From the NCBI GenBank assembly GCA_050084515.1, contig CM114271.1, forward strand, positions 30,504,001-30,568,000: a DNA stretch of 64,000 nt, given 5' to 3'. Shown here in pieces: positions 2,824-62,990 of the stretch (positions are counted from its first letter, which is position 1; every line of letters starts with the position of its first letter). Made by a program: the position numbers and the translations under genes. Below the pieces are notes generated by a model that saw only the letters and a program-made list of their open reading frames with translations, was not told the origin of the DNA and searched no databases. This stretch comes from Blasia pusilla (lineage: Eukaryota).

Positions 2824-2938
2824 GTTGTGCACATACACATCGTTACATAACAAACATCGTTGTCACCGAACACACACGATCACACGCTAACTCATGGCAT
2901 CCAAACAACGAGACAAGAAGTACCAAGATATCTCCAAT
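2824..2938 (-). repeat. Element 1 short repeat B2 (outermost), partner of B1 at ~3449-3569
   Basis: cacatacacatcg...ctaactcatggcatccaaacaacgagacaagaagtacca..atatctccaat is present on both sides of A2. Confidence 0.9.
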
Positions 2939-2940
2939 AA

Positions 2941-3436
2941 ATCAAGATCCAATCTTTCTCAACACCATAGCTCTCAAGCTATGTCTCTCTCAATGTCAAA
3001 CCAAACCCAATCTCCTAATGAGAGGCTTGGGTTACACACACAAGGCAAGCAAGACCATAACTCCGCCGTCTTATGCCAAGAGGTTCAACAAAGAGAGAAT
3101 GAGCTCTCAAGCTCTCTCACCTTAAGGCATACCCCTCCCCTCTCCTAAGCTCTCTCCCTGGTAACCTATGCTCCCAAGTCATCTCTTTAGCTCTTGACTT
3201 GATGTAGGAGGTCAAGGGCCACTTACCACAAATAGAAAGTCGACCATATAGTCAAAATGATACTTACCTGAAATAGCAGGTTCCTCAATATAGCTCCAAA
3301 TGAGCCGAAACAAAGGGAAAACTTGCTCTCTCAGGTTTCCCGGGGCCTCAACAGGTCATCCTCGACATCCTGATCTTGTCCTCCACTACTCGCGAAGGCG
3401 CTCTACTAGATCTGACCGAAGTATCCTAAAAGACGT
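2941..3436 (-). repeat. Element 1 second copy of terminal repeat (A2)
   Basis: Aligns by eye along its length to 12021-12558, with small indels. Confidence 0.92.
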
Positions 3437-3749
3437 CGCTACATCATACACATACACATCGCTACACAACATAGATCGATGTCATCGAACACACACACAA
3501 ACACACACGATCCCATGCTAACTCATGGCATCCAAACAACGAGACAAGAAGTACCAAAATATCTCCAATCGCCTCCCTAGTTGGTGGTTAGGTCCCTCTA
3601 ACTCCAGATAGCCATCTATCCCTACCTACCATGACATACATCTCTCGGACGCTAAGAGCAAGAAGATCGGGTGCTCATGTGGTCCCATCGTTAGTTGCCT
3701 TCTTGTCATCCATATCACAGACATAAGTTGGAATGTAGAAGTACATACT

Positions 3750-3893
3750 TTATGTATATCTAGGACATATCCATCTTCCCTGAGGAACCCTAGTGAGAGG
3801 TGGCGTCAAGCATGCCATATGCCATCCTCTCGAACATTCGTCATAGATTAGCATAGTGGTTGCACCACGCGCAGAACCACACAACATACATCG
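3750..3893 (-). pseudogene. PHD finger at element 1 integrase C-terminus
   Basis: CMLC..LIYDECSRGWHMACLTPPL..VPQGRWICPRY has C4HC3 spacing with two Cys>Tyr changes. Confidence 0.9.
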
Positions 3894-6800
3894 CAAGCCT
3901 ATACGAACTACTACTAAGCTTGGATCAACTGTATTGTAAATGTTTGGAAGGTGACACGGTGCAAAGTAACGCACATGGTCCTTCCAAACTATATCATTGC
4001 GTCCCTCCAATAAGAGAACACCTAATGGCAAAACCTCACGCACTCTCAAGATGGTGCGCCTTGAAGTTACATCCAACGTCGTGGGTGCCATCTCCTGCAA
4101 GTAGACATAGTCTCCCTAATGAAACCTATGGATAGTAGATCGATAATCACCTCCCCGAATAGTCGCACACCTCAACGTATCCCGATGTTGCACAATCGCC
4201 AAGTTCTCAAACGTCATGGGCATCACTCTCCCAAATAACTCAACCCTCTGAGAACATGCTCGCATCCATACATCAGGGTCATCAGGGTTCAACACCTCAC
4301 CTGTATCTCGACAAATGACCGTAGGTAAATCTGGCTCTTGGCCATAAAGCAACAAGAACGGTGAGAAAGACGCTAAGGATGCTTGCCTGCTGAATCTGTA
4401 TCCCATCGCCAACCATGGCAACTAAAGGTCCCAATCTCCTAGGTGACCTCTCTGCAAGCCATACTTTTGTAGTCCTCTCTTCACCATTTGCACAACCCGC
4501 TCCGCTAGTCCATCCGCCTCAGGATGATCTCGCGAAGTAGTGCGGTGGTTGATCAGTGTCTGATCACACAAGGCCTGAAACTCCCTGCGGAACTCAGACC
4601 TCGGTCATCAACACCTCATTTGGTGCTTTGAATGACTCAACACTTGATCTAGGAAGGCATACGCTACTCCCTCACTCGCTTTGTCAGGAAATGCAACCAA
4701 CTCTATCCACTTTGAGAAGTGCTCGAACATGACCAACACATAACGACTATGGCACTCCATCAAAGGCAAAGGTCGTGCAAAATCCAAACTCCATCTATAA
4801 CCTAAACCCATGATCGAAAGTGGATGCAACTATGGAGTAGGAGCATTGAACGATGCTTAGACTCGATCACACACCATCTATCTGGTAACAAATTGTTGAA
4901 TGTCAGTTTGCATGCCTCGCCACCAATACTGAATCTGGAGCAAGCTATATGTTGGCTTCACTCCAAAATGACCCATCTCCTCATGGGCATGACGCACCAA
5001 ATGCGCTCTCTACGAAGGATGAGGCACTACACGCACTCTACCATCCTCCCACACTCGCAACACATGTGTGCCCTCCCACCGGAACTGTCTGGCTCGCTAT
5101 AGGATCCGATCCCGCTCTTTAGCACTCATTGTGCTTGCGACGCTGCCAATACGTAGGTACTCCAAGACCACTCCATCGTCGTAAATATCTCGGCCACCTG
5201 TCGTCTCCTCACCGACCTCTGGATCTAAGGACTCTCCATCAGACCTCGTCATCGAAGTCTCAACAATCTCGCTCTCCATAGCCAACAAGCCCAAATAGGC
5301 TAACGCATGCCATCCTAGCACCAACTCCTCATCACTCTCACCATGCCAACGAGCTCCAATCGCATCTTGCAAACTCGGGCATGGGTTACGGCTCAAACCA
5401 TTTACATCCCAATTGAGCGTCCCAGGTCTATGCACCACGTCGAAGTCATACTCCTTCAACAAAAGAGCCCACCTCGCAAGCTTCCCTGTAAGCTTGTCGG
5501 ACTCTATCAACCACTTAAGTGGCTAATGATCAATAATAATGGTAAACAATTTGCTGAATAGATAACACCTGAGATGTGCAACAGCCCATAGCGTAGCCAA
5601 GAACTCATCCTCGTACGAGCTATACTTCACATCTGCATTGTTGTTTGAGCGACTAGCGTAAGCCACCACAAACTCTCTACCATCATTGTCATGTTGGGTG
5701 AGCACGGCTCCAAGCCCCAACATGCTCCAATCGATATGCAATTGGAAGGGACGGCCCCTGATTCATCTCCTCAATATAGGCGCGGACGTCAATCTGTACT
5801 TGGGCAGCTGAAATACTCTCTCTTGCTCATCCCCCCAGTGCCACTCTTGATCGAGCTCGGTCAGCAAGGTTAGCGGCTTTGCAATCAAACTGAAATCCTT
5901 GACGTACGGTCGAAAGAAGTTTGCCAATCCCATGAATGCACGAACCTGACTCACATCTGATGGGCGTGGAATGCGGGAAATAGCCTCTACCTTTGTCAGC
6001 TGCACACCAAGACCCCTTGGGTATATCTTATGATCCAAGTACTCAATCTGGTCGTAGAAGAACTTGCACTTGCATGGATGTAGCTTCAGCCCATGTAACT
6101 GCAATCGTCAAAATACCTCCTCTAGATGTCGCTCATGCTCCTGAACCTGGCGCTAAAGACTATGATGTCATCAATATAACACCTAGCAAAATCTAGACCT
6201 ACCAAGATCCTATACATGACCCTCTGAAACTCAACCGGGGCGTTCTTTAACCCGAATGGTAAGAACTGCCACTAGTACAAACAATCCTTCCTACAAGGAT
6301 CGATGCCCCAAAATTCCGTCTTCTTCCTGTCCACCAATCTAATAGGCAGCTGATGATATTTGGCTCGCAAATCCAATGAACTGAAAACCTTTGCATGCCC
6401 AATCACATCAAAGATCTCCTCGGGGTTGGGCATGGCATACCTATCAGACTTTGTCTCCAGATTGATAGATCGGTAATCTCCACATATCCGCCTATCCGTC
6501 AAGTTGCCATGCACATCCTTCTTGGCGGGCATGACAGTGGTAGATGCATACTCTCCATGCGACATCTACACTAGTTCTGCTCCAACCAAGTCTTGGCTCC
6601 TACTCTGAATCAGAGCCCTCTCCATGTGACAGTTCCTATAGGGTCGTCGGAAAATCGACGTGTCACTCGAAAACTCAATGTGGATCCCTAGACCCTTCAG
6701 CATACCTAAATCTTGCATGCTAAATGCAAAAAACTCCTATTACTCCTCACGAATTGATATATCTGGCGCCGTTCTCCTCATATCATCTTGGGGCCCATAT

Positions 6801-7149
6801 GTGGCTCCCAAGTCTCCATCCTGACTACGATAGGACTCTCTAGTGCGGATGTAGGTGGTTGCTATGTTACAAGCCACTCTCCTACAATCAAACTCGACTG
6901 CTCTCTTGCAGCCAACTGCAAACTCTCATCTCTAGGTGTAGTACCCAGAACCACGCTCAATGTTGTGGCCATCATCTCTTGGCGTACCTAAAAAACATCC
7001 CAAGAAGTCCAAGATTGTCTGACCCGATCATCCCTGGAGTATTGATCTCCTCGGGTCTCGCCCCCATCCACTACCTCAACCGTCTTAGTAGGCATGGGGC
7101 TCACCAAAGCAACACCTATGTCGCATCCTCAAACGAGGCTGCTCAGCTA

Positions 7150-8090
7150 CTCCTAAGCTGAAAATCCATATCAAGCAGTTCAAGACATGACGTCGTAATG
7201 CCTTTGATAGTGACGGTACTGCTTTCACTCCTGTGGGGAATCCCATCGCTCGCTCTTGCTCATCGGCGTTGGGCTCCACCAACCTCTGTACCTGGTCATC
7301 CCAAACCAAGCATGGTCCAGCCTCCTTGAATGCATAGGAATCGGGAAAACTCACAAATGTGGGAAAGGTTGCGCATGGCATGCCAATCCTCTTGACCACA
7401 GTCAACGGCGGTCGATCATCATGCCTCACTGCCTATGATCGATGGCCCAGATCCAATATAGAATCCACCAACAAATCGGAGGGGCGGTCCACTCTCGCAT
7501 ATGCCCTCCACAACACCTTGTGTAGTACCAAGTTGGTCCACCAAAGATGCGGGCAATATGCTCATAAACCCACACTCGCCGCATCCAAAAAAATTGCTGG
7601 GCCGATCCATGCGTACACCTGATGTGCACTCGTCATCACATGGGACCTCGAATTGCCCAAAATTGGTACGTTCTCCAGAATGTATGCTGGAGAACAAGAC
7701 CGATGCTCCTGCAAGTGTCGGAAGATCTGCATCATCTCCCAAAACAACCTAGACCGAGTGTCACCTAACCCGCTACCTCGTCCAACACTCAATTGGCCCT
7801 AATACGGCCAACCAGCAATGACCAAATCTATGGCCCCTACGCGCTCCAAGTCCTACATCCCCAACAATGAAATATCCCTCGGTAGGGAACTCTAGTATCC
7901 CTGGGCAGTAGATGCAGTCAAATAGTCGGGAAAATGGAGGCGTAAGTTCGCCACATGGTGAAGTGAAGAGCACCTCGCAACGTCATCAATCTCCACATAC
8001 ATGTACTATTGCACGGGTACTCCTGCTTGCAAAACAACAACTAACCCAGTATTGATCCCTCCAAAGAGTTCTAACACCCAAATACCCTCC
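7150..8090 (-). pseudogene. DNMT3-like C5 cytosine methyltransferase domain in element 1 pol (inactivated)
   Basis: Motif I VLELFGGI (~8055-8078); YVEID; motif IV LVIAGWPY*G (decayed PCQG); SRLFWE; motif VI ILENVP; LWWTNL; motif IX EQERAMGFP. Confidence 0.88.
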
Positions 8091-9137
8091 TCTGGGAAGC
8101 ACCACACAATCGGGGTGATGTCCTAAGGGGTCATAGCAGCACTCCTGGCTACTTGGGGTTCCTCTGACCCGTCACACTTTGGTGCAAACGTCTTGCTCCA
8201 CGTGGTCTGCATATGCTTAGTGGCTAAGCGTTGAAGCTCCTTAGTCGAGCCCCAAAGTGGCACCTCTTCTCCACAGACTGATGCGGCTACCATGACACTC
8301 CTCTCCATAGAAATGTCACGAATGGGAGTATCCTATGTATGGACATGTCTTCAATCAAATCACTACGCCAAGTCCCCATCTCTCTTGGCCATCACTTGAT
8401 CCTTGCATCAGTGAATCGAACAAGTAATGAGCTAAGGCACCCATCATCTGACTGCCATCCTGGTCTGTAGGATGCTAACTCCTCCCAGTAATCCACGGAA
8501 AGCCCCATCGGATATAACACTACTCCACCAACCAAGACGTCGTAGGACTCTACATCAATGACTATCGCCTTGGCTCGCACCACAGACTCATTTGTAGGAT
8601 ATCCTGGATGAATCCTCACCACAACCTCGCTCCATCCAAGGATGTCTATATGTGGAATGTACAACGCTCCATATCGACTCTTGTCAAGCCCAATCCTCTG
8701 AATGACGCTTTCCCCAACATCAGGGGTTGCGCTCCTCAATCCAACTCCACGCTCACAAAGCGTAGCGGCCAACCGGAACAGCTCGACGAGTGCACCTCCC
8801 AATGTCATAACATCGGAAGTAGAAAAAATTTGAGCACAATACACCATCGTGCCCCCCAACATCGTTCTCAACACATGCTTCTCTTGAGCATCAGCAATAG
8901 GAGTTGTCGCACTCATTTCTCCCCTTGCCCTCCGTGCCTGCACACCAATAACATCACCAACTCTTCGGGAACTCTGATCAGGACCCATTGATGAGGTCCT
9001 CAACGCCTCGGACAGCGTGAAAGAATGAGGAAGCCTGTCTATTTCCTGGCTTCCCCTCGCTATGGATCCACCTCCTTGTTCCCCAACGCGACCACGTGGT
9101 GCATGATCTCTAGGCCCACCCAGACCGGCTACTCGCT

Positions 9138-10269
9138 CTAGTGCCCTCTTTGGCCCCCGATCCGGACATAATTGAGGGTGTAAACAGAAACACCTAGCGC
9201 GTGTATGATCATATCTCTAACAATGTCACATTGATAACCTCTTGGTGGAGCACCATCTCCTACTTCATGCTGAGGCACACATCCATGACCGTGAAAAGTG
9301 CAATCGCGTTGATGATGGGCTCCACCACATGACCAACAAGTAATCATAGGCGGCTGCTGTTGAGCCGTATATGAAGAACCGGGTCTTTATGGCATGACCT
9401 CCCGGTATCCGCCCTGAGCTCATGGTGCCATTGTCGACCTATCTTGGAGTCCACGTTGCTGCATAGGTGGTGCAGGAAATCGTGACTGCTCTCGCCTAGA
9501 ACCCATGGTGGCTACGCTCTCATTCGCCATGTTGCACTCAATGTACTTGCGCTCCTAATCTCTCAACATAGGTGAGGTGTTTATAGAAGAACCCCCTCGT
9601 GCACCCGTGTCCATAGGGTCCGGTCCAGCATCGCGTACCATGATTGGATAGCCTGAGCCTCTATCACCCCCTAAGTGACGTTGATTAACCGGCGCAAGCG
9701 AGTTTAAGCCTCACGCAAACTCTCACCCGGGCGCCTCTAGAAGTCGTGGATGCTCGGCAACCTCTCTGTTCGTACCTCCAGGTGGCTTGCCCTCAACTCA
9801 CCGAAGAACTCAACCACGAGGTTGAACCTGGGACAAACCCAACTGGATGGTGCAACTACTCTACTGCGAGTTATCCCTCCTAAAACATAACTGGTGGATG
9901 AGGAAGTAGCCTCTCTTGACTCCTCCTCCTCATCTGGGAACGGCTCCGTCCATGATACATAGTGTGGGTCATAGTAGAGTCGCCATGCCTCAATCTCTTG
10001 TGCATATCTGTGGGAGAACTCATGGTAGTTGTCCATGGGTGCCTCCCGTCTAAATACTCGAACATACCGTTCCATGCTGTAAACGGGTTGAACTCTCTAG
10101 ATTTCCTAGCCCGCTGTGTGTTGCACCAACTCCTAAACTCCGCAATGTGGTCATGCAACTCTTTCATGCCTACTGCACTTGAGAACCTACGCAGTCCTCT
10201 ATCCCGGTCGTCCATCTCGTACGCCCAAGTAGTAGAACTACTCAATGTGAGTGGCAAAGCACTACTCAT
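9138..10269 (-). pseudogene. gag: Element 1 gag (frameshifted)
   Basis: GLRRFSSAVG..FRSWCN..FNPF matches element 2 gag; zinc knuckle CWSCGGAHHQRDC. Confidence 0.85.
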
Positions 10270-12020
10270 TTCCTCTACGCCCTCCTCCTCGTCTGCAGAT
10301 TACACAAAAGGAGGTCAAGGTGGTCCCGCACGTGGAGACCCTCGAAACCTCGCGCCAACCCTCTAGAGCTACTCTCTGGTCCACCACCTTGCCTCTCAAA
10401 GTCCCCAAAGGACGCCGAGATTATCCTCGTGCCCCCCTCACACGATCACTCTCAACCTCGCGAGTAATCAGGCAATCAGTCAATCTAACATGCGGCACTT
10501 AAACTACACTCTCTCACCGAGACGTGTGTTGTGCGGCAACAAATGGCGTGGTGCGGCAAATCAACTGATCTATAGTCTCATTGATAAACCATCCTCAACT
10601 TTGGACATCCCACACAGGTCCATATCCCCTCAACCCATAAGTCATCAATGCTCTCAGCATTAGCACGAAACCCAATATCCCAAATAACTTCCCAATACCG
10701 GGAACTCCCTCACACGTGCAGGGTAAGAGACCAAAATGGGTAACCTGACAATAATGTCGATGTCACTCCTCGACAACTGCAAATCTCAACCCCAACTCGT
10801 TCGTGAAGACAACTCCTCCAATCAGCAAGTCGTACTCCTCTCGTACTGACACTTTTGAAACCTCCTCAATATGCGGTGGGGATCTAGCGGTACGGTACGG
10901 TGCGGCTCTGGCGGCACGGAACGGCTACAGAACCGCACAACACTTGATAATGGGATGCGGCACTCCGCAGCATATGCTCCTCAATCAGCTATACACACGC
11001 ATTGCTCCTTAGTGAAGGAGCGGCTCTGCGATTGAGATGGTGCGGCGCAGCCACGAGCAGCACGCTGCGGCTACCGGCGTCACGCCACGGTACTTGATCG
11101 TCCTCGAGCGGCTACCAATCCCAACATAGCATAATGAAATGAAAACTCAAACACCATAACCCGAGATCACCTGCCATCATCGGTTGATGACGAAATAACA
11201 ATGACGCTCATGGCCAAAACAAAGTACGTGGTGGCGGCGCAAGTCAGAGAATCAGCGGTTGTCGTGGAAGACCCTCCACTCCGTAATGGCGGCAATGGCA
11301 ACCAAGGATGGAAAACGGCCGAACACAGCTCTAAGCAACGCTAGGTGGCGGCGGCGGCCGTAGTGGACGATGGACCATTGACGGTGACGGCGGACCATTG
11401 ATGGTAATAGTTGACCCTCGATGGCGGACCATTGAAGATGACGGCAACGGCCACCGCCGGCGCGGTGGCTAGTTTAGGGTTTGAACAATTTTACCCTAAA
11501 AATTTCCTAGCAATGCCAGTTTTGCAAGATTGACCATAACATTTTGCTCGCAACTCCAAATTGCGCACTGTCTATTGCACAGCGTGCACAACTTCACAAT
11601 CTACGACGGCATCAAAAGAGTTATAAATCAGACATTCCAGTAAAAATTGACAGGGATTGTCGTAAAGCCCAACGTCTCTTTCTCCTACACAAAATTTGGC
11701 AGCACTTCTGCATTGATTTCTCCCAACGAAATTTTAAAACCTGTGAAAAATCAAAAAGCTACATGGTGCTCTTGAGAGCACCGACATGGGGAAATTTTCC
11801 CCCATACTCAATCCCTATAAAAAATTGGGCAACACTTTCGCGCGCCACTCTTCCACACGAAAAATCGGCAAAGAAAACATAAAAGATGAGCGGCTTCGGC
11901 TCCGGTGAGCACTCCCATGAACCGTTGAACAAGGAATAGGATCCCCAACCTGCAAAACCAACGAGTGACTAGCGAGCTCCTCCATGAAGCTCTCTCACTC
12001 ATCTCATTCTCTCTTTGTAC

Positions 12021-12558
12021 ATCAAGATCCAATCTCTCTCAACACCATAGCTCTCAAATGTGTGCACTCTCACATGTATCTCTCAATGTCAAACCAAACC
12101 CACTCTCCTAATGAGAGGCTTGGGTTACACACACAAGGCAAGCAAGACCATAGCTCCGCCGTCTTATGCCAAGATGTTCAACAAAGAGAGAGTGAGCTCT
12201 CAAACTCTCTCTTTCCTTGAGGTATACCCCTCCCTTCTCCCAAGCTCTCTCCATGGTAACCTATGCTCCGAAGTCACCTCCTTGGCTCTTGACCTAATGT
12301 AGGAGGTCAAGGGCTATTTACCAGAAATATAAATTCGACCATATACTCAAAATGGTACTTACCTAAAATAGTAAGTTCCTCAATATTGCTCAAAATGAGC
12401 CGAAACGAAGGGAAAACCTGCTCTATCACATTTTTGGGGACTTCAGCATGTCATCCTCCACCTCATGAGCCTGTCCTCCACGACCTCATGAGCATGTCCT
12501 CCACTACTCGTGAAGGCGCTCTACTAGATCTCACTGATCTATCCTAAAAGACGTGACA
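12021..12558 (-). repeat. Element 1 5' terminal repeat (A1)
   Basis: Direct repeat of 2941-3436 (atcaagatccaatc...atcctaaaagacgt); starts with TG on the minus strand. Confidence 0.92.
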
Positions 12559-39700: not shown

Positions 39701-39989
39701 GGATTAACAAAACATAGGCTATTGAGATCGATACTACTAATAATGAGCACAAAAATATCATCAAAAAAAAATTGATGGAGGAAATGCCCATAATCAAGAT
39801 TGAGAACCATCCAAATCTTCCTACTATTGCAAGATGAAAGCTTCTTATTCAAGGGATTCGTTGTGCACAAACACATTGTTGTACAATATACATCATTGTT
39901 ACTACTCAAACACAAAAAACACTAAACGAATTCAATTACCATGAAATTCAAACACAAAGCTTGATATCAACTTCCTCACGAACATCCCG

Positions 39990-40730
39990 AGTTGGTGTGA
40001 GATCATAAGTTGGTGTGGAACCCTTGGAGGATAGATGTAACATCGCCAAGTTGAAATGGCGGAGGCAGTTGGAGACAATGGACTCCCATCGCTATCCTAA
40101 AGAGATTATGGGGAAAATCTGGACCTAAAGAAGACTCGTAAAGCAGGCCAAATCTTGGACATAAAAGATTCAAGAGATTATGCAAGCATCCAAGCTCCCA
40201 GTAGGGCCGGAACTATGGGAGCAAGATGAGAAAGCATTCGTGCATACCATAACCAAAGCAGTGGGCAAATGCTCACAACAGAACAGCATGGAGGAAGCCA
40301 TGAAAATGTCTTACCTCTCTCTTTTGACGATATATCCTGAGAAGGCAGAACTATTTGCAGGGAACCCCTTGCTTGGGAACCCAGCTCAAGTTCAAGTTCA
40401 GGACGGGGGAAATCCCCTTGAACCATAAGAAAAGCAGGATGGGAACACAACTAAACTCTTGCGCCTTGTGTGACGATGGGGATGAAACCTCTAGTCATTA
40501 CTTGGTCTCCTGCGCAAAATTCACAACACACAAAGCAAGACCATATGTTGATATTGCTAAGCTGGTAACACCACAATTGTTCAACACATTCAGTAGCCTT
40601 GATTCATTGCCCAAAGCTCTTGCACCGGTAAGTAATGTCTAATGGGGATCCCAATCAGGTAAAGTAGATGGTATGGTGAAGAGTTTCTCGGTTGACACTT
40701 GAAAGATCCGCACAAACACGTTGTTTGGTC
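39990..40730 (+). mobile_element. LINE 3' fragment (C-terminal zinc-binding region)
   Basis: LKFKFRTGEIPL..CALCDDGDETSSHYLVSC followed by a decayed WKIR motif, typical of the LINE ORF2 C-terminus. Confidence 0.65.
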
Positions 40731-40874
40731 AGCGCTCACACTATAAAAGAGCGTCTCCCTCCTCTCATATTATAACTTCTTCATTTGCTTCTCTCTCTAC
40801 ACCCATACCAGTCTCAAGCACCGTCCAACTTGGACGCCGGGAACTTGGAGAATGGGACTACTCATAAAGCTAGG

Positions 40875-41258
40875 AGCACCATAGCTCCGTAGCCTCACGA
40901 TCAAAAGGTTCAACAAAGAGATAATAAACTCCCCATGCCAAACTCATTCCCCTAAAGATATACCCTCTCTCTCCAAGTCCTCTCCATGGTGACCTATGCG
41001 CATAGGACACCAACTTGATCCTCAACCAAAAATAGTGAGTCAAGAGCCACTTTTCATGAAACTCTCACATAATTTAATTTACCCAAAATAATACGTTCCT
41101 CAAATGGCCTCCAAATGTGCCAAACGAAGGGAAAAACTGCTCTTACATGTTACTCTACTCCTCAATAGGTCATGTATAACGGGCTCAACCTCTCATCTCC
41201 AAAGTTTCATACAAAAACTCTTTTAGATCCACTCTAAAAACATCAAAAAGATATAACA
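40875..41258 (-). repeat. Diverged solo-like copy of the element 1 terminal repeat
   Basis: Collinear blocks aggttcaacaaagag, tctccatggt.acctatgc, gtcaag.gccact, tacc.aaaata and aaacgaagggaaaa are shared with 12021-12558. Confidence 0.7.
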
Positions 41259-42996
41259 CATCTATAAGAGATGACAAGCCTTTTGTATATGCATAAGTAA
41301 GTAATCATTTAATTTTAATTGTGGATTGTGATTATAACTCACACGAGTCACAAAACCAAGGATACCATGGGCCTAAGTCTTTAAGAACTTTCTCCTTTTG
41401 AAAACATGCTCACATCTTTATATCAAGGTTTTGAAGATTCAACACCTTTGCTTATCACATTGAATAGTTGTAGGTGAAACTAGCTCTTTCCCATGGAGAA
41501 AAAAAATATGGTGGAAATAATGCGAAGGATGCTAACATGCTATAATATAAGCTTGGGAAGAGCAATTCATCAAATTGAATAAGCGTGAAAAAGAAGTGGA
41601 AGGATTAAAAATTCATATCAAATTTTTTGGGATGCGTCTTCCTCATGTCATAAAATGTGCAATCCCAAACCTCCCCTCAACCTCCCCCAACATGCGGGTT
41701 TCTTTGAACATATGCCCCGCAAGGGCCCACATCCTCTAGAAGGTACTTGTTAGATGCATAAATGACCCAACTGTCTAATTTTGTACTTATTAGTATTTTC
41801 AAAGGACCACTACAAAAGTTTTATATCACATAGTTGTTAGTCAAGTAGCAAATTGAATAAAGATAATTTAAGGCTTACTTGTAAAACGTATGAAATTTTT
41901 CTTGGCATAAATACCATGTATAAATTAACTTCAATTATTTTGACAACACAACCAAAGTAAGGAATTTCGACCCTCAAAATCACATTATGAAAATCCAAGA
42001 TAGTAAATACGGTCTTCAATATTTTTACATTGAGCCAGAAAAAACTATAGATTAAAACTCCAAATTTTGACATAATGAGATGTCTAAGGAATACAAAAAC
42101 AAAAGAAGGTTGAACCCAAATTTTTTTTGAGAAAATAGCTATTGGCGACATGTAGGGGAATTCATGGGACCCATTACTTTTGTGAGAATCCTTCCAAATG
42201 AGTTGAAACAAAGTTTTACTTTTATCCATCTCGGAACACACATTCAAAGACCATTTATTTTCCTCTTTATCAATTTTTATCATCAAAAAATCGATAAAGA
42301 GGTACTTACTTTAAAAATTACTTAGTTTCACAAAAATTAAAATAAGAATTTGAGGTCCAAAATAAATTTTTAGTCAAACCTAAGTTAGGCTGATCAAGTA
42401 GTTGGACTATTGTTGATTATTCCATAACTTCCGCATAACTCTATACAAAACATCCAAAAAATTGACCACATTTGATTTTCAAAATCAATATTATATATTA
42501 GTTGATTAGGGAAAATTGAAATCCTCTTCCCTTATTTCCTAGCTAAAGATATGAAAATTTTACGTATCAATCCCCAAAAACTTTGAAAGTACAAATAAAG
42601 AAGTTAAAATAGCCATTATCATGCCCAACCAAAACTAGGAAGTATTGGGCTTTGATCTTCTCATGCGCTCTGTTCCCAACTATTTTGGTTCACTTTGTCT
42701 CCTTAAATCCATGTTGAAAGTTGAAACTATAGTTATCCTTAGTTAATTTTGCATAATCATGAGACACACAAGCCTCAAAATTTTTGCAAGTCTTTCAATC
42801 AATACTAATAAGACTCTAAGGCTCTTCTTGGGAGCGAAAATTCATAATCTAAAAGAAGAATATGTTACAAAATGGGGTTTTATCAACTTTTATGCAAATC
42901 CAGCTGGGTCCATCATATCATTCACATATGCGGCCAATGTAGTACTAATAGTTGTGAAGTTGGATAGATTAACTTGAAGTTTTTTCCTATAGTGGC

Positions 42997-43756: not shown

Positions 43757-44504
43757 TATACCATAGGCGCTTTCTTCTCAGTAAAAATAGTATTTCTGGA
43801 ACTATCCGTCCACCGTAGGAGTGTTGTAGAAGCCCTAAAAAGTATTCTCTTTTCCTTTCAATTCAACGCTACCACGAGAAATTTGAGTATGGGAAGAGGT
43901 TAATAGCGGAAAAGAAAAAGGGGAAAACCACTAAAATATAGGAGGATCGTGAGGTGTAAATGGGATGCACTTTTCTTTCATAAAATATAGTTGTAGGCTT
44001 CACATGTTGGTATAAATAAAGCCTTGTTTTAAAAAACGATTGAGTGCAATTCTTAGATTTGTGAAATGACTACATTCCATTTTTCTTAGTTTCTTTCGTC
44101 ATGGTCAACAAGTCATCTGGCTCTGAAAGACCTCAACATGAAAGTTGTCAGAAACGACGTTCCTGACACAATGGACCTATCCTCAACCTCATCAGACACC
44201 ATGGGACAAAGTTACACTCAAGATAGTCCGCTGGCTCCTACGCCCTATCCACGATAGATCTCGGCCTATCAGCTACTCAGATGTGATAGTTGTCGTGCGC
44301 ATACATATCGCTACACAACATACATCGCTTGTCACATCTACACCACATAACATCGATCTTCCCCACACACGGGTCGATCCACACATGTACAAAAATCAAC
44401 TCATACATATACATGGAGATCACACAACCGCCCCCCTAGCTGGCAGTTGGATCCCCCCAACTCCAGATAGAAAATATCACATCTCTCTAACATGACCTAC
44501 TACC

Positions 44505-44646
44505 CTATACACATCTCGGACACATCCATGGTCTCGTGGGAACCACATCAAGAGGGGGGGTCAGACATGACATATGCCACCCTCGAGAACAACCATCACA
44601 TACCAACATGGTGGCCGCACCCCTCGCAGATTCGCACAACATACAC
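44505..44646 (-). other. Intact PHD finger (C4HC3) at element 2 integrase C-terminus
   Basis: Manual translation gives CMLCESARGAATMLVCDGCSRGWHMSCLTPPLDVVPTRPWMCPRCV*. Confidence 0.93.
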
Positions 44647-47600
44647 CTCAAGCCTGTAGGTACCACTCAGATCCACCGTCCCATCTACGCTCGGAAGATG
44701 ACATGGCGCACACTTGCGCACATGATCCTTCCAAACCATACCATCCCGTCCCTCCAACATGAGGACTCCGGTCGGTAATACCTCGCACACACGTAGGATC
44801 GTACACCCTACAGTGACATCTAGCGTCGTGGGTGCCACCTGGTGTAAATACACATAATCTCCAAGATGAAACCTTCTAATCCCTGGACAATGACCTCCTC
44901 CACGAATGGTCGCTTACCTCAATGTATCTCTATGCTGGGAAATAGCTAAGTTCTCAAAGACCATAGGCATAACTCTACGAAAAACCTCCGCCCTCTGAGA
45001 ACATGCTTGTACCCACACATCTGGATCATCAAGATCTAACACCTCTGCCATGTCACGTCGAATCGCTGCAGGTAAATCGGGCTCTCTCCCAAAGAGCAAA
45101 AATTACGGTGAAAATGACGCCCAGGATGCCTGCCGACTAAAGCGATAACCCATAGCCAACCATGGCAACTGTAGGTCCCACTCCCTCAACTGTCCCCGCT
45201 GCAAGCCATACGTGCGCAATCCTCTCTTCACCGTATGTACCACTCTCTCCGCCAACCCATCCGCCTCAGGATGATCTCTCGACGTGGTGCGGTGATCTAT
45301 GAGCGCTTGATCACACAGGGCCTGAAACTCTCCCTTGAACTCGGTACCCTGGTCAGTCAACACCTCCGCCGGTGCACCAAAGTGACTAAGCACAGGATCT
45401 AGAAACGCATAAGCTGTTCCCTTGCGCATGCTCGCCTTATATGGTAGTGCCACCAACTCTATCCACTTGGAGAAATGCTCCACCATGACCAACACGTACC
45501 TATGATGACGCCCCGTCAATGGAAAATTAAGGTCCCGCAAAGTCTAAACTCCACGGATAACCTAAACCCATAATCGGCAAAGGATGTAACTGCGGAGTGG
45601 GAGCATTGAAGGATGCTCCCACTCTGTCACATACCATACATCTTGCCACAAACTACTGTATCCCAGTATGCATGCCGTGCCACCAATACTGAACCTGGAG
45701 TAAGTTGTAAGTACGCTTTACTCCAAAATGTCCCAACTCCTCATGGGCATGTCTCACTACACGTGCTCGCTGGGAAGGATGAGGTACCACTCGTATCCTA
45801 CCATCTCCCCATACCCGCAAAATATGAGTCCCCTCCCACCTGAATCTCTTGGCTCTCTGTAGGATCCGATCCCGCTCCCTAGCACTCACTGTACTCGCTA
45901 TGATGCCAGTGCGCAAGAACTCCACAACCTCCACGTCGTCATGGATATTGCGACCACCTATCGCCTCCTCACTAACCTCCGGATCCAAAGACTCATAATC
46001 CAACCTCACCACTCGAGTCATCACCTATGGCTGACCTACCATAGTCAACCAACAAAGATAGGCAGATGCATGCCAACCGGGCACCATCTCCTCATCACTC
46101 TCTCCATGCCATCGAGCTCCTGTGTGGTCTGTCTGACTCGGACATGGGTTACGACTCGGACATGGATTACGACTCGGACATGGGTTGCAAATGGGTTACT
46201 CAACCCATTTGCATCATATGGTTCAGCCGACCTGGCCTATGAACCACCTCAAACTCCTGTAGTAATAGAGCCCACCCGGAAAGCTTTCCCGTAAGCTTGT
46301 CGGACTCCTTCAACCACCTCAACGGCTGATGATCACTGATAAGTGTGAAAGGGTTGCCGAATAAATAGCACTTGAAATGTGCCACGGCCCACACTGCAGC
46401 CAAGTACTCTCCCTCGTAGGAGTTGTACTTTTCCTCTTCAATGTTGTTTGATCGGCTCGCGTAAGCGACAACGAACTCCCTCTCCTCGTCATCCCTTCGA
46501 GTAAGCACTGCTCCTAGACCCAACATGCTCCAATCCGTATGTAACAGGAATGGGCGACCCCTAACCGGTCTCTGTAAAATGGGTGAGGACGTCAACCTGT
46601 CCTTGAGCTCCTGAAATGCTCGCTCCCAATCATCTCCCCACAACCAAACCTGATCAAGTCTCGTCAACAAGGTCAAAGACTTTGCGATCGCACTAAAACC
46701 CTTGACATACCGTTGATAGAAGTTCGCCAGTCCAAGAAATGCTCGGACTCGACTCACATTTGTAGGGAGTGGAATCTACGCAATAGCCTCTACCTCGGGT
46801 ATATGGTGTGTCCCAAGTACTTAATCTGCTCCTGAAAGAATCTGCACTTGCCTGGATGTAACTTCAGCCCATGTAACTGCAATCGCCGAAACACCTCCTC
46901 CAAATGTTGCTCATGCTCCTCAACCGTGGAACTGAAGATAAGAATATCATCTATGTAACATCGTACAAAATCCAAGCCAACCAAAATCCTATCCATTACT
47001 CTCTGAAACTCTGCAGGCGCGTTCTTCAACCCAAATGGTAAGAACCGCCATTGATACAAGCAATCTCTCCCAAACCGATCTATCCCCCAGAATGTTGTCT
47101 TCTCCTTGTCCTCCAACCTGATAGGAAGCTGATGATAGCCAACACGGAGATCTAAAGTACTGAAGATCTTTGCATGCCCTACCTCATCAAAGATCTCCTC
47201 AGGAGTAGGCATGGCATACCGATCGGACCTCGTCTGTGGGTTGATAGGACGGTAATCTCCACACATCCGCCTATCTGTCCAATTGCCAAACATATCCTTC
47301 TTTGTCGGCATGATTGTGGCAGATGCATACTCCCCATGTGATAACTCCACAAGTCCTGCCTCCAACAATTCCTGACTCCTGCTCTCAATCAAGGCTCGCT
47401 CCATATCAGAATACTTGTAGGGTCGACGAAAGATCGGCGTATCACTAGCCAACTCAATCTGTATCCCTGGACCCTTCAGCGTACCCAAGTCTCTCATACT
47501 GAAGGCAAAACAACTAACATGCCCTCTCAGAAACCTATGAACTTGCCGTCGCTCTCCTCCTATCAACTTGAGACCTATCATAGGCTGCCAAGTCTCCATG

Positions 47601-47899
47601 GTGACCTTACTCGTAGAGGACGCAACCTCCGGCTTTGGTTGCTATGTAGCAACCCTAGCCACCTCCGCAACAGCCACTCCACTATGATCTCCTACACCAT
47701 GCTCCGCATCCAAAAAATGAACATGTGCTACTCTAGCCGCCTTTGCACTCTCTGCTCAAACAACGTCCCAAGAAGTCCATGGGTGCCTATCTCTCCTCGT
47801 CTCGCCCCCAGCCAATGCCTCTACAGACCCTGTAGGAAATGGTCCAACTCGTGGACGTGACGGCATGGATGACACTCGCATCCGTCTCTCCTCAGCCAT

Positions 47900-48860
47900 A
47901 CTTAGGCTGACTATCCATGTGAGACAGTTGAGGTCCATCGCCTCCCCCAACACCTATCTCTGGGATGCCTTAGTCATCCCTGGCACCGCCGTAGTACTGG
48001 TAGCAAACCCCATGGCGTGCTCGCGCTCATCTGTTGTAGGCTCCTCCAATGCGCCGGTCACCTCATCCCAAATCATGCATGGCCCTCCCTGACGAAAGGC
48101 ATGGGATGCTGGGAAGCTCACCAACGTAGGTAAGGCTACCCTCAACTCCCCCACCCTATTGGCCCTGGCCAACGGTGGTCTATCATCCCGTGTCACCACA
48201 AGAGATCGATGCATTGAGCCCAAAATAGCATCCACTGTGAGATGTGGTGCTCTCTAGACTCCATCGTATGCTCGACTAAGTACCTCTGAAGGTATCAGGT
48301 TCGTCCACCACAGTCGTGGACGATGGGCACGTGATCCAACTCTCGCCGCATCTTATAACACAGCAGGTCCCAACCAGGACCTCACCTGATGCACACTCGT
48401 CATCACACGTGCACGAGTGTCTCCCAACAACGGCACGTTCTCCAAAATGTACGTTGGAGAACATGTCTGACTCTCTTGCAAGTGTTGTACTACTCGCAAC
48501 ATCTCCCAAAACATCCCTGACCTCGGATCCTGCAATCCAAATCCTTGGCCAGTTGATGAATGACCCTGACATGGCCATCCAGCAATCACCAAATGAATGG
48601 TGCCAACTTTATCCAGATCTTGCGCCCCCACCAAAGAGATGTCGGCGGGTAGTGTATGCTGATATCCACGTACTGCAGATACCGGCAACAACTCAGGATA
48701 CCTCTGGACCAATCGTGCCAGGTGACGTAATGATACTCGCCGCGCAGTCTCATCTCTCTCCACATAAAGGTAGTGATGCATCCGTATGCCCGCCTGCAAT
48801 ATTGCAGCAAATCTGGTGATAATCCCTCCGAAGAGATCTAATACCCTAACACCCTCCTTT
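47900..48860 (-). pseudogene. DNMT3-like C5 cytosine methyltransferase domain in element 2 pol (catalytic motifs intact, 3 in-frame stops)
   Basis: I RVLDLFGGI; II YVERD; III ADIS; IV LVIAGWPCQG; SGMFWE; VI ILENV; VIII AHRPRLWWTNL; IX EREHAMGF; X VLGEAM. Confidence 0.95.
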
Positions 48861-51800
48861 GGGCACTGCCACATAACGGGTGTGGTATCCAGTGGAGTCA
48901 ACGTCTCCACTCCAAGAGCCCGATTGCCACGTGACTCTCGCTGCTCCGGGATAAAAACATGACTCCACGCCTGCCTCACGAGGTCGTCGGCACTCCTATG
49001 TAGCTCTGGAGTCGTACCCCACAATGGTGAAGAGGTCTCGCCAACATGGGAAGAGACACCGGCCATGGCCTATCTCTCTGTGGAACTATCCGCTACTGGG
49101 ACATCCTCCGCATGTACATTCCCCTCCAACAACTCTCCTCGCCAGCTAACACTACCTGTGAAAGCCGCCAACGTGGTCACAGACTCGCCTCGTGATTCAC
49201 CACCTCGTCCTGCAAACTGCACGGGTAACTGACTCATCTGGCCGTCACTTGACCGCCACCTTGGCCGATAAGCAATGATTTCCTCCTTGAAGTCCAAGAT
49301 GAATCATAGGGGATATAACACTGTACTCCCCACGAACACATCGTACGACTCAGCTGGTGTCGTAATCGCACGTGTGCGCACCATAGCACTATCCGTCGCA
49401 TGCTCTGGCTGGACTCTGACATATATATTGCGTGGGTGACACGCCCCCAATCGAGGTCTGTATCTAGAAGGGACAAGGGTCAATGTCGGCCTTCCGTAAC
49501 CCCAACGCTAAACACGCGGCCTTCCCTAATATCAAGGGTTGCGCTTCCGAATCAAGTAGGACGCGCTGCGGGTGGTATACTGTCCCCGTCGGACTAACCA
49601 AGCGAAATACTCTAGCTCGGTTATCCAGTAACACAACTCCAGGTGTCACCATTGCTCGCTCTATGGCCGGTCGAACTGGCATATTGTGATACCCACAATT
49701 TTGTACTTTTGAAGAAATATACCTTTTTATTCAAGGAAGACTTGTATATACATTATGATTTTGATTATTATATATTATTATGGGGAGGAATGAGTAAGAT
49801 TAAAATGAATCACGAAGCTCCAAAGACAAGGCAGAGAGATAGAAAATCAAGGATTTGCCTAAGAGGTTAGGAGAATAAAATAACGAAGTCTCAAGACCCA
49901 GCAAGAAGCTTCGGAATGACAACGAAGCTCTGTCTACGAAGTGCTTTGCTCTATAACGAAGCATGAAGAAGAAGAGAAAGAAGTACTTCGCTCTTGTACG
50001 AAGCACGAAGAACGAACCACCTAGAACAAGAACAAAGAATGGAGTGCTTCGTCTTCAGATCAGGAGAAAGAGCTTCGTCCTCAAGCAAAGCAAAAGAGGT
50101 CCAGACTTAGCAGCGAAGCAAAGCCAAGATTGACAATGATTTCAAGCGACACATAGTTAGAACAATTAGAATAGGAAAAGACGCAACCCTTTGTATCAAA
50201 TTGGTAGTTATAACAGTTTTGTTCTGCGGATTCATAGGGATCATAGGAAAAGCAAAGAGCACCATAGATCTAGGTAGTTACAAATGTTGAAGAGCCATCA
50301 GCTTCATAAAAAACGCTTCGAATCTTTGGATCACTCCTCCTTCAGAGAGTATTTAAGAAGCATAGAAGTAGCTATCATTATCATTCTCTTACGATGTCCT
50401 CATGCTGTAGGAATGGTCCAAGCAAGGGAGTAGTACCCTCTCGAGCTTGTATACACTTTGAAGCTTTTTCATTCTTGACGGAATAGTGAAGCAATCATTC
50501 ATTCATTCTGATGTGCGATGCTTATGTTTGAGTATTCTTATTGGGTCTGCAGAGTGAAGAGTGAATTAGGCGAACCTTTCTCATCAATATCATAATCAAC
50601 ATAAAGATTGTAGGAAATCTGTTTGACAGAGAGTAGCCTGCCGAGACGGATTTAGTTCAAAAAGTAGGAGAAGCCAGCTTTCATGTTGAGGTCTCTATGA
50701 GGTTTCTTGATATCGAGAGGAAATCTACTTGAGCATGCCGTTAACTCCACTAGAGAGAATTGAGAAAAGAAACTTTGGTACTAAGAAAGATCTGAAGATA
50801 TTGATAAGACATTGAATATAAATCATACACATTTAAATACAACTATTACGACAGAATTGTAATTTCGAACTCTCTTTTCATCAAACAATGATCCTCTTGG
50901 GGATTAAACTTATTAAATGACTGTAAAATAGAAACTCTTGTACATTACACATATCTACCAACTTCGCCGCCGCCGCATGCCATGACTCTGTGGGGAACGT
51001 CCCGAGCACCAGCTCTGAGGGAAAGTCCACCACCTCCTCAACTACCTCTGAACAAGAAGCAGTCATCTCTCCACATTCACACAACGTGGCGGCCATCGGA
51101 ACACCTCAGCTGGTCCAACTCCCAACGTCGCCAACTCTATGGCGGAAAATAGTGGATTCTGACTCACTCTAGTGGCCACCTCTAACACTATGGTCGACAC
51201 TGACTCTACTCGAGCCGGCATAGGAGTTGTCACTCCAACTCCTCGTTACGTCGACGTAGGTAAGACCATCTGCTATCTCTAGCTATCCCCCTGAGACAAT
51301 GGATGAAATAAGATAACAACCGGTTTGCTGCATTGGTGCTAGAAAAGATAGAACAATTAATTAGTATTGTCAAAGAACCAGTCGCCGAATGGTGCTTCGC
51401 CCATGAACGTCAGTTGTACTTGGTGATGACTTGGTACTTCTGTTTATGGGAGGAAAACCTGGCAGGAAGATTAAGAGCACCTGCACACTCCTGTAGGCTT
51501 TAGGAATTAGGAAGATCTAATTTCCCTCCATGGACCCCTACCTTGTGGCGATCGTGGGTACAAAAGCAAGCTCCCGAATCCCAGAAGGGACTCATGGAAG
51601 TCTCCCGGCCCTCTTTGCGAGATCAGCGAGCTGATCGACGCAATAAGCAATAAGAAGATCATCCGTCTTGGAGACCGCCGGGGGTGTCTCCCAGTCTTCG
51701 TCTTTGCATGAAGCCCAAGAGCAGGAAGAGGGACAGGAATACGCTCCCCACCACCTCTCCTGTCAGTTCGTAGTCGGACGAAGAGTCAACCTGGAATCCC

Positions 51801-59384: not shown

Positions 59385-61002
59385 ACCACTACCACTGGTA
59401 GCACTACCCCGTTCTTCTGAACCCTGGAAGAACGTCGTGATGACAAACCCTGTCTCACCCGCTCAAGCACTCAGACTCACCGAGAGTCTCTCACACTCCT
59501 CGCTAGCTCACCTATGCTAATTTCAATCCCGTGATGACACAGCCGGCCTCACGCACACTCAACACTCGGGCTCACCATGAGCCTCCCAACTGACTCACCT
59601 AACCTAGCGACACTCTCGGTTCATACATGCAACCCCTACGCGGCAACCACTGTATATCCACCAACATGCTACACATGAACAGAATCTACACTCGTCACCA
59701 TGACTGCACCCACCTAGCACCAGCTACTATCCGATACCCAGCACTCTCAATCACACACGACAAGTGCGGAAAAAGGGACTCGAATGGGTAACCTGATCAC
59801 GCCCTCCAACCTACTGCACTGTCAGCATGCACTCCCCCAGGTGACACGGCAACCTTTGCAACACAACACTCTCCTCGACCAGCACGTCGATCCTCCCGTC
59901 AACAGATGCAGACAACCCGTTGGCATTATGCGCACTACCCCTCCATCGTCAACTCTCGCAATGCCCTGTCGTGCCCAAAAACATCATGTCACGCAAACCT
60001 CTCCGTCCATCCCCACACACGGCATGTAACCTGACTCACCCTGGTCGGCTCCACTCCTACCACGTACACACTGTCTCTACCACGTTGCCCATGCGCAACC
60101 ACGTCCAAAGGGGGGGAAAGAGAAATAAATGCGGGAGGGGGGGGCTTGGCCTGCACCCCTATGGGCCTCCCCAACTTTGGGGAAAGAAATAAATGCGCTG
60201 GGGCGCGTCGCCACCCACCGTCTGCCCGTCGTCGTTCACATGTCTGCGCCCGCCGACCTAAACGCCTCCTGCTCTTTCCCGACACTCTCACTCACATACA
60301 CCCGACGCCCTACCGCACACTACACTCGGCTGCTATCCCGCGTCAATCCGTACAAGCAAAATCTGAAAAAAAACGGACAGCGCTTCCGCCCACGGCCTTC
60401 CAAACACAAAAATGACTGACACCCGCAATACACGCGTCTCTAGGGGCTCCTGACCAAGGCAACTTGCTTGCCTACCTACAAACAACGAATTACCACCCGC
60501 CCCCTGACATCTTTCTCATGTAAAAAATAAAGAGTAGTAAAAACGGCACACCCGGCCTAAAACTCCACTCCTCAATCTACATCGGCATATCGAGCCTCGT
60601 CCACCCTGTGCTATCAAGGAATCCGGACTCTAGCATCCTAGTCCTATCTCACACACATACAAGAGAGGTGCTCCAACGGCCCAACATGAGAAAGATGGCT
60701 TAGGAAATCCATCTTCCTCTCTTATATAGGGTTGGGAAGAGCCAAAAGGCTCTTCCCCTAAAAATAGCCCTCCCCTTGGTAACCTGCGCGCACAAATTAC
60801 CAAGGGCGGGTGACCTGGTCAACAAGTCATCTGGCTGTGAAAGACCTCAACATGAAAGTTGTCAGAAATGACGTTCCTGACACAATGGACCTATCCTCAA
60901 CCTCATCCGACACCATGGGACAAAGTTACACTCAAGATAGTCCGCTGGCTCCTACGCCCTATCCACGATAGATCTCGGCCTATCGACTACTCATATGTGA
61001 TA

Positions 61003-62990
61003 TACAATTCCAATCGAGGATGGGGATTTCCCTTTATTAAACGCCTTCTACGGCCGGAATTGAATATTAGGATCCAATAAGACTCATAGTAAGTTTGGCT
61101 CCAAATGACGTTCAGCGGACGCAACAGTTTGGGACACAATCAGAACTAAGGTTCCGATTCTACATTTGTTGCCAACCTATTGGGATCTAAGGAGCAGGCC
61201 ATTCAGACCTATAGTTCCAAGTCAAGAATGGGGTTTATTATTACCGGACGCCTTCTCGGGCCGGAATTGGATCTTAGGTTCCAATTGGACAATCAGAACT
61301 TAGGTTTTGATTCTACATTTGTTTCCGACCTATTGGGATCTGTGGAGCCAATCCGGGGCCATTCGGGATGACAACTTCAATCGAGGATGGGGATTTCCCA
61401 TTATTGGACGCCTTCTACGGCCGGGATTGGATCTTAGGATCCAATTGGACTTAGAACAAGTATGGCTCCAAATGACTTTCAGCGGGCGCGGCAGTTTGGG
61501 ACACAATTTAGAACTTAGGTTCCAATTCTACATTTGTTGAACACATAGGGATCTTAGAGGCAGGCCATTCCGAACTACAGTTCGAGTCGAGGAAGGGGAT
61601 TTCCCTTTACCACACATCTTCTGAGGCCAGAATTGGATCTTACGATCCAATTGGACTTAGACTACGAATGGCTACAAATGACATTCAGCAAGCGTGGCAG
61701 TTTGGGACACAATCAAAACTTAGGTTCTAATTCAACATTTATCTAAGACGTAGGAATGTTAGGATCAGGTCATTTAGTACTACAGTTCTAATCGAGGATG
61801 GGGAATTCCCTTAAACAGACGCCTTCTACAGTCGGAATTGGATCTTAGGATCCAATTGGACTTAGACTAGTATGGCCCAAAATGACGTTGAGCGGGCCCG
61901 GAAATTTGAGAAAAAATCAGAACTTAGGTTCTGATTCTACATTTGTTTCAGACGTAGGAATGTTAGAAGCAGGCCATTCAGAACTATAGTTCCAATCGAG
62001 GATGGGGAATTCCCTTAAACAGACGCCTTCTGCCGCCGGAATTGGAACTTAGGATCCAAGTGGACTTAGGCTAAGTATGGCTCCAAATGACGTTCAGCGG
62101 GCACGGCAGTTTGGGACACAATGAAAACTTAGGTTCCGACTCTACATTTATCTTAGAAGTAGGAATGTTAGAAGCAGGCCATACCAAACTACAGTTCCAA
62201 TCGAGGATGGGGAATTCCCTTTAAGAGATGCCTTCTACGGCTGGAATTGGAACTTAGGATCCAAGTGGACTTAGGCTAAGTATGGCTCCAAATGACGTTT
62301 AGCGGGCGCGGAAATTTGGGACACAATCAAAACTTAGGTTCTGATTCTACATTTATCTCAGAAGTAGGAATGGTAGGAGCGGACCATTTAGAACTACAAT
62401 TCCAATCGAGGATGGGGAATTCCCTTTAACAGACACCTTTTGCGCAAGGTTGCATGTGGAAAACGTCCGTGTCCGTGGACTTATGTCCATCCTATAGAAG
62501 GACTTGTCCGTATGGGCCCCATATTTTCCTTCTTTCTCATTCCCTTTACTTGCCTTCATGTTCTATACTCCTCCATTTCGTCCTCCCTCCACCTCCACTC
62601 CCTCCTCCCTCATTGCTCCTCTCATCCTTGCCTTGCCTTCCATCAAGGACTAAAAGTATGGGTCCCACCTCTTGGAACCCATGTCCGTGGATATGTCTAG
62701 ACTTATCTGTCCATGTCCGTCCTAAGGACTTTTCCGTTTTTATGCAACCATGCTTCTACGGCCGGAATTGGATCTTAGGATCCTATTGGAATTAGACTAA
62801 GTATGGCCCCAAATGACGTTCAGCGGGCGCAACACTTTGAGAAATAATCAGAACTTAGGTTCTGATTCTATATTTGTTTCAGACGTACGAATGTTTGAAT
62901 TTGACCAGACGTCATTTGGAGCCATACTTAGTCTAAGTCCAATTGGATCCTAAGATCCAATTCCGGCCGCAGAAGGCGTCGGTTAAAGGG
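61003..62990. repeat. Tandem satellite, ~204-205 bp unit
   Basis: atcgaggatgggga recurs at 61791, 61995, 62200 and 62405 and in earlier diverged units; the last ~90 bp (62905-62990) is inverted. Confidence 0.95.
62445..62752. mobile_element. hAT-type MITE (308 bp) inserted in the satellite
   Basis: TIRs caaggttgcat / atgcaaccatg (10/11 match); 8-bp TSD cttttgcg / cttctacg; internal gtccgt/ggac subterminal repeats. Confidence 0.8.

Follow-up and report, generated by a model that had tools for sequence, protein, structure and literature searches.

Split direct repeats on Gypsy-type retroelements with a DDE integrase in Blasia pusilla

The split-repeat layout, in which an element reads A1-coding-B1-A2-B2, is taken as a signature of tyrosine-recombinase retroelements, the explanation being that circular cDNA recombines where the repeats meet; TOC1 has this layout. 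The stretch of Blasia pusilla DNA analysed here (64,000 nucleotides, hereafter the window) raises the question of how the same layout can stand on elements whose only encoded recombinase-like protein is a DDE integrase. The sample consists of three copies in the 64-kb window, all decayed, one of them truncated and one internally deleted.

Repeat anatomy of three decayed copies

A repeat search and self-BLAST of the window delimit the split repeats of element 1, which lie on the minus strand in the order A1-coding-B1-A2-B2:

12019..12554, minus strand: element 1 A1 (5' repeat), 82.9% identical to A2, with a TATA-like box at 12226-12221 and a predicted RNA start at 12196
3437..3569, minus strand: element 1 B1 (internal B), 82.6% identical to B2, read as the 5' part of U3 in an intact B+A LTR
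2939..3436, minus strand: element 1 A2 (internal A), making a complete canonical LTR with B1
2824..2938, minus strand: element 1 B2 (3'-terminal B), ending in GTGCACAAC, as does the third copy; element 2 B1 shares this end in the form CACGACAAC

Self-BLAST aligns the A pair (A1 12554-12018, A2 3436-2938) over 537 columns (E 5e-163) and the B pair (B1 3569-3449, B2 2938-2830) over 121 columns (E 1e-30) at the identities given above. B2 can be followed on to 2824, where it is homologous to the ends of B in element 2 and the third copy. Because the two pairs are equally diverged, B2 is as old as the insertion. No B was found behind A1 in 12030-11800, where local alignment scored 17 against B2 and 19 against B1, under the means of 200 shuffles (21.1 and 22.1, respectively). 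The A2/B2 junction reads GATTTA/TTGGAG, 1-2 nt less than two full LTR ends. An earlier description of this DNA made from its letters (the sequence-only reading) had placed the repeats of element 1 within 4 bases of these ends, had seen no B behind A1, and had described the internal B1/A2 junction as a 3' end joined to a 5' start, with GTTGT on the plus strand at both 44289 and 2824; on each of these points it proved accurate.

The other two copies are less complete:

60522..61002, minus strand: element 2 A1, with TATATAA at 60728-60722 and a predicted RNA start at 60697, adjoining a satellite; its 3' end is set by the primer-binding site
44289..44437, minus strand: element 2 polypurine tract (PPT)-like AGGGGGG (44437-44431) and B1 (44427-44289), which ends in CACGACAAC
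44102..44288, minus strand: element 2 A2, broken off after 187 nt, with B2 gone
39860..41272, minus strand: third copy ("element 4"), comprising A (41272 to about 40804), a short leader, a foreign stretch, GAGGAAG (39977-39971) and B (39970-39860)

In element 2, A1 (61002-60816) and A2 (44288-44102) are 96.8% identical over 187 nt (self-BLAST). A stretch resembling B1 lies directly against A2 at 44289 and matches element 1 at 86% in 44327-44293 and at 80% in 44470-44425. The homology of A1 to other A copies runs past 60816 while A2 stops at 44102; element 2 is thus truncated inside A2. Both the homologous B1 adjoining A2 and the truncation on the A2 side had been anticipated by the sequence-only reading.

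The A of the third copy is 65-67% identical to that of element 1 and has a homologous start, with CTTGTC just upstream, and its B aligns with element 1 B2 at a score of 57 (shuffle maximum, 42). This B ends in GTGCACAAC with flank directly after it and no A2, the form that a one-LTR circle, or recombination between B1 and B2, would leave. A candidate B remnant after A in this copy, a 15/16 match, only equals the best of 200 shuffles and was not used. Also within the third copy, a zf-RVT match at 40328-40639 (plus strand) is weak, with an E of 2.4e-4 that misses the Pfam cut-off; an inserted non-LTR retrotransposon may have left a fragment there. The AT-rich stretch between the third copy and truncated element 2 contains a tRNA-Thr (AGT) gene (43683-43756, minus strand).

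Several features of the window lie apart from these copies. Domains zf-C17orf113 and DUF4371 (15725-16449 and 19066-19488, both plus strand) are probably DNA transposon remains or a domesticated transposase. A short tandem repeat spans 17396-17729. A Pif1-type helicase 2B domain (21743-22327, minus strand), possibly from a Helitron, sits within a minus-strand run of ORFs from 21743 to 24538. ORFs with F-box and leucine-rich repeat domains (33351-34659, minus strand) represent a plant-type host gene; one exon-like ORF there gave no protein-search match.

Coding content and relatives

ORFs were taken from stop to stop and searched with Pfam, covering 54 of the 128 ORFs of at least 90 aa in the window, 120 of at least 45 aa inside elements 1 and 2, and 46 further long ones. 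A tblastn domain map was made with eight liverwort and moss relatives. By both methods, the two long elements share the order gag-protease-C5 DNA methyltransferase-RT-RNase H-DDE integrase (H2C2 + rve)-PHD finger:

3753..10221, minus strand: element 1 coding region, interrupted by stop codons and frameshifts (tblastn, Pfam)
10221-8750, about 8750-8413 and 8332-7127, minus strand: element 1 gag, protease and DNA methyltransferase
6810-6152, 6146-5055, 4829-4449 and 4115-3753, minus strand: element 1 RT, RNase H, integrase and PHD finger
59258-57712, minus strand: element 2 gag (5' part), split off by a nested plus-strand Gypsy
44508..51257, minus strand: element 2 coding, 3' part, with protease-methyltransferase 49688-47762, RT 47590-46796 and RNase H 46805-46221
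46156-45196 and 44666-44508, minus strand: element 2 integrase and PHD finger

The Gypsy nested in element 2 gag (about 51258-57711, plus strand) is unrelated to its host and encodes gag, RT, RNase H and an integrase zinc finger; no direct repeats of at least 25 nt flank it, so that it has no recognisable LTRs. Between gag and protease, element 2 has about 1.5 kb (49553-51069, minus strand) with no counterpart in element 1, reflecting either an insertion there or a deletion in element 1. Leaders from primer-binding site to gag are long, 1.8 kb in element 1 (10222-12002, minus strand) and 1.25 kb in element 2 (59259-60507, minus strand). They have no Pfam match and share one conserved 37-nt block only (10748-10712 and 59796-59760).

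Pfam detects rve and Integrase_H2C2 in element 2 and an rve fragment in element 1, confirming the DDE integrase named in the sequence-only reading. RVT_1 and RT_RNaseH/RT_RNaseH_2 are present, as in Ty3/Gypsy, by Pfam domain content. A tyrosine recombinase of the Pfam Phage_integrase type, which that reading had also failed to see, was absent from all 174 ORFs scanned at E<=0.001 and 0.01 (54 window ORFs, 23 of them in elements, and 120 element ORFs). None appeared in the 46 further window ORFs, bringing the total scanned to 220, or in five longer relatives at E<=0.5.

The methyltransferase (PF00145) is recognised at E 4e-10 in element 2 and as a weak fragment in element 1. Its best solved-structure matches are DNMT3C, 3A and 3B, at only E 0.002-0.009, and M.HaeIII (E 0.003). 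The best relatives of the methyltransferase ORF, at 58-66% identity, are found in Calypogeia fissa, Marchantia polymorpha (many loci) and Sphagnum. These bryophyte relatives carry the same gag-protease-methyltransferase-RT-RNase H-integrase modules. Within the Gypsy Pol of the window elements, protease and RT flank this domain (48356-49069 and 7127-8332, both minus strand). In two distant relatives (P0051 and P0057) it instead lies between RNase H and integrase, a position that suggests more than one placement or acquisition. The PHD finger closes the integrase region at its C-terminal end (3753-4115 and 44508-44666, both minus strand), the spot held by the chromodomain in chromoviruses.

These domains place the window elements with Ty3/Gypsy, whose gag and protease-RT-RNase H-integrase order they keep, with the methyltransferase added between protease and RT. 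They differ in lacking two identical flanking TG...CA LTRs and a visible 4-6 bp duplication, their ends being the start of A and the end of B. Elements with split direct repeats have been defined as such, with an internal junction that combines end and start (PMC4157794, PMC7192593), and Toc is listed under PAT elements (PMC4157794). The window elements resemble PAT, TOC1 and Ngaro in the split A1...B1-A2-B2 order, the internal end + start junction and the lack of a visible target duplication. Unlike these, however, they have no tyrosine recombinase, and their RT, RNase H and integrase are of Ty3/Gypsy type. Whereas the DIRS order is marked by a DIRS-clade RT and no DDE integrase, rve, Integrase_H2C2 and Ty3/Gypsy-type RT domains are all present here.

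A precedent exists in the charophyte Klebsormidium nitens. KnitGypsy-Dnmt3 combines Gypsy domains with repeats in the order A-coding-B-A-B, as in a DIRS retrotransposon (de Mendoza et al. 2018, PMC5890265, Fig. 4c legend). By legend and text description, it shares with the window elements both this order and a Gypsy-type Pol containing a C5 DNA methyltransferase. In contrast, the best protein matches of the window elements lie in Calypogeia, Marchantia and Sphagnum (58-66% identity), and no protein named as Klebsormidium is among the 31 and 50 matches listed for the element proteins. The legend and accompanying text of PMC5890265 give no mechanism for the KnitGypsy-Dnmt3 repeats, and a 2026 preprint mentions "streptophytes (Gypsy-DNMT3)" in passing. 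Searches on KnitGypsy and Gypsy-DNMT3 returned nothing beyond these two sources, and those on Marchantia Gypsy elements with DNMT3 and on permuted LTR elements nothing relevant; in the literature searched, no printed mechanism was found for the split layout in Gypsy elements. The sequence-only reading had assigned the layout to PAT/TOC1/Ngaro and not to Gypsy: the order is indeed that of DIRS, but it had already been stated for a Gypsy element, KnitGypsy-Dnmt3 (PMC5890265). The window elements are bryophyte-type and probably of Gypsy-DNMT3 type, and the layout paradox is real and noted once before.

Could the layout nonetheless be an accident of one locus, that is, an ordinary LTR element altered by a one-off local duplication or rearrangement? 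In its favour, B2 is directly visible in element 1 only. Yet the start lies at a homologous point of A in all three copies, none of which has a B upstream, and the B end GTGCACAAC is the terminus in both copies that retain a 3' end. The equal divergence of the A and B pairs in element 1 and the published Klebsormidium precedent point the same way, and we regard a one-off event as highly improbable. Local duplication was also the case that the sequence-only reading had named as fatal to its claim, and the window copies disfavour it. Coding identity between elements 1 and 2 is 72%, indicating at least two diverged subfamilies among the three copies. The split layout is a family trait and not a local duplication. 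Other parts of the genome may contain canonical B+A...B+A copies.

Priming signals and the extent of the LTR

The extent of the LTR can be read from the signals that flank A and B. Those bearing on priming are as follows:

3572..3578, minus strand: element 1 PPT-like AGGGAGG, 2-3 nt 5' of B1, in the best conserved non-coding block (3611-3566)
12181..12196, minus strand: element 1 predicted first 16 nt of RNA, CTCACTCTCTCTTTGT, 30 nt past the TATA-like box
12003..12018, minus strand: element 1 predicted self-priming primer-binding site, ACAAAGAGAGAATGAG, flush with the A1 end
60508..60521, minus strand: element 2 predicted self-priming site, ACATGAGAAAGATG, complementary at 14/14 positions to 60697-60684, 31 nt past TATATAA

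Polypurine tracts (AGGGAGG, AGGGGGG and GAGGAAG) stand 0-3 nt ahead of B in all three copies, and block 3611-3566 of element 1 is 80% identical to element 2 over its 46 nt. A predicted primer-binding site of the self-priming type follows A1 in two of the three. B starts with (T)TG, A ends with ACA, and the TATA box lies within A, as TATATAA in element 2 and as weaker homologues in element 1 and the third copy. Readings that make A an exact U3 and B either U5 or R were rejected, because the TATA box stands about 200 nt before the A end and the priming site is flush with that end.

The putative site ACAAAGAGAGAATGAG is complementary at 16/16 positions to the A2 copy (3103-3088) and at 15/16 (94%) to A1 (12196-12181), and the resulting R-U5 lengths are 178 nt in element 1 and 176 nt in element 2. 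Minimum-energy RNA folds pair the leader ends, 12196-12181 with 12018-12003 in element 1 (z -2.15; -2.44 for element 2). Perfect inverted matches as long as those seen arose in 8 of 1000 shuffles for element 2 (14 nt) and in 59 of 1000 for element 1 (11 nt). Between the two elements the priming pairs differ in sequence and match in position, which amounts to covariation. The case for self-priming rests on position and covariation, with RNA starts placed from TATA spacing only. The third copy has no inverted match of at least 8 nt at the expected place. Matches to an initiator-tRNA primer-binding site numbered 7 across the window on a loose criterion (4.96 expected), none of them beside A1 or the elements.

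Self-priming is reportedly the mechanism of Tf1, as Levin is said to have described in 1995. The predicted primer-binding site of the window elements is likewise flush with the LTR and complementary to the predicted 5' bases of the RNA, as in Tf1/sushi elements. Tf1 has ordinary LTRs and a chromodomain, with no PHD finger or methyltransferase, whereas the window elements have a PHD finger, a methyltransferase and permuted repeats; cleavage of the primer by RNase H is only predicted for them.

A polypurine tract before B and a priming site after A imply ordinary reverse transcription, with a linear (B+A)-coding-(B+A) product ending in TG...ACA. B1A2 would then be one whole LTR, with A1 and B2 as halves of the other, and A2/B2 would be a U5/U3 junction such as arises in 2-LTR circles or in head-to-tail concatemers. 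On these signals, we hold it somewhat probable that each genomic copy is an ordinary B+A LTR element in circularly permuted form, derived from circular or concatemeric cDNA opened at B/A. Normal RNA could still come from a permuted copy, whose A1 retains promoter and start site and whose A2 provides the 3' R.

The same signals can be read differently, with A as the whole LTR and B as a 3' untranslated stretch. An extra template switch at the internal B1/A2 junction would then rebuild the ends in linear DNA, which the DDE integrase inserts. A alone has the TATA box, R-U5 and an adjoining primer-binding site, the integrase gene is kept in relatives, and the role given to B1/A2 resembles that of the internal complementary region of DIRS-1, for which missing ends are modelled as restored from an internal copy (PMC7192593). 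However, the stretch before A2 is not purine-rich, and a textbook polypurine tract instead precedes B. By reasoning only, no scheme built on the priming sites as mapped would place a copy of B to the right of U5. The ends also lack TG...CA and a target duplication, and such a template switch appears unlikely.

Junctions with the target and entry into the genome

TTGT(C/A) immediately precedes A in all three copies. For element 2, the flanking repeat serves as a stand-in for the 5' empty site:

61003..62443, plus strand: 205-bp satellite, the insertion target of element 2

Six other monomers of this satellite read ...CTACA(G/A)/TTCCAATCG, and the TTGT of element 2 is in phase with the monomer. 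The internal junction of element 2, GACAAC/TATCAC, has no TTGT. These two observations mark TTGT as target DNA or microhomology; as part of the element it is ruled out in element 2, and a microhomology of 4-5 nt is possible where element 2 meets the satellite. A probe picks out about 7 units of the satellite, of which about 5 were scored, at 83% matches; partial copies in inverted orientation lie at 62753-62991.

No target duplication of at least 3 bp was found in the two copies with both ends. With boundaries shifted by up to 3 nt, the only candidate was a 3-nt ACT in element 1, rejected for overlapping B bases, and the third copy offered nothing. This lack is weak evidence, given that the copies are old and their repeats 17% diverged. 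The genomic ends are not TG...CA, since A starts with ACG, TAT or ATC and AC is retained after CACA; a canonical TG...ACA LTR is present only as the internal B1A2 unit. The junctions do not look like classical integrase products, though the copies are old.

For the permuted-copy reading, these junctions would fit cDNA that enters the genome as a circle or concatemer, opened at a fixed point in U3, the B/A boundary, and inserted next to a target TTGT without target-site duplication. A 2-LTR circle opened at one B/A would give A-coding-B-A-B, and a 1-LTR circle so opened would give A-coding-B, the form of the third copy. Retroviral 2-LTR circles are regarded as dead ends. The A2/B2 junction shares with them the order of U5 end and U3 start, but in the window elements it is fixed inside genomic copies. 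From the anatomy, the odd step is most likely the entry of cDNA into the genome rather than reverse transcription. The sequence-only reading had proposed a non-standard replication mode; that proposal survives in part, as reverse transcription looks canonical from its cis signals while an anomaly remains, most likely at genome entry.

Two other routes would reach the same junctions. Canonical B+A proviruses might be the normal product, with a few permuted copies left by 2-LTR circles that had broken at a weak point or by integrase-free host repair or annealing. Such by-products accord with the lack of a target duplication in two of two copies and with the possible 4-5 nt microhomology at the satellite junction, and the self-priming Tf1 is documented to insert independently of integrase and to give tandem forms (PMC11042837). 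Against a by-product origin, three of three copies from at least two diverged subfamilies (72% coding identity) break at the same base, and the published drawing of the Klebsormidium family has this layout too, so that we consider such an origin quite improbable. Alternatively, a DIRS/PAT/Ngaro-type element in the same genome could provide a tyrosine recombinase in trans, which would integrate circular cDNA at B/A. Topology, fixed junction and missing duplication are all as in tyrosine-recombinase elements (PMC4157794, PMC7192593). Yet the 220 window ORFs scanned (54+120+46) include no such gene, the conserved integrase would have no role, and a search for a recombination core common to the B/A junction and the three targets, direct or inverted, found no overlap longer than 1 nt. 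We therefore rate supply in trans as very unlikely.

Extending the permuted-copy reading beyond Blasia, a doubtful but conceivable picture is a streptophyte-wide lineage, from charophyte to bryophytes, of DDE-integrase Gypsy elements. These would make self-primed B+A cDNA and integrate obligatorily from a 2-LTR circle, at a fixed U3 site, beside TTGT and without duplication, by an integrase-PHD protein or a host factor. If true, the integration logic of tyrosine-recombinase elements would have evolved without a tyrosine recombinase.

Gypsy elements that combine the split layout with a DDE integrase only break the link between this layout and tyrosine recombinases. The layout extends to bryophyte-type relatives and is therefore old and stable. 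The family appears to prime its own reverse transcription, and with B+A defined as a canonical LTR by the priming signals, the anomaly most likely lies at integration and not at reverse transcription. LTR finders that expect equal flanking LTRs and a target duplication will mis-delimit such elements. Should a genome-wide census confirm the pattern, the family would make it practicable to ask whether circular cDNA can be integrated by a retroviral-type integrase or by host repair.
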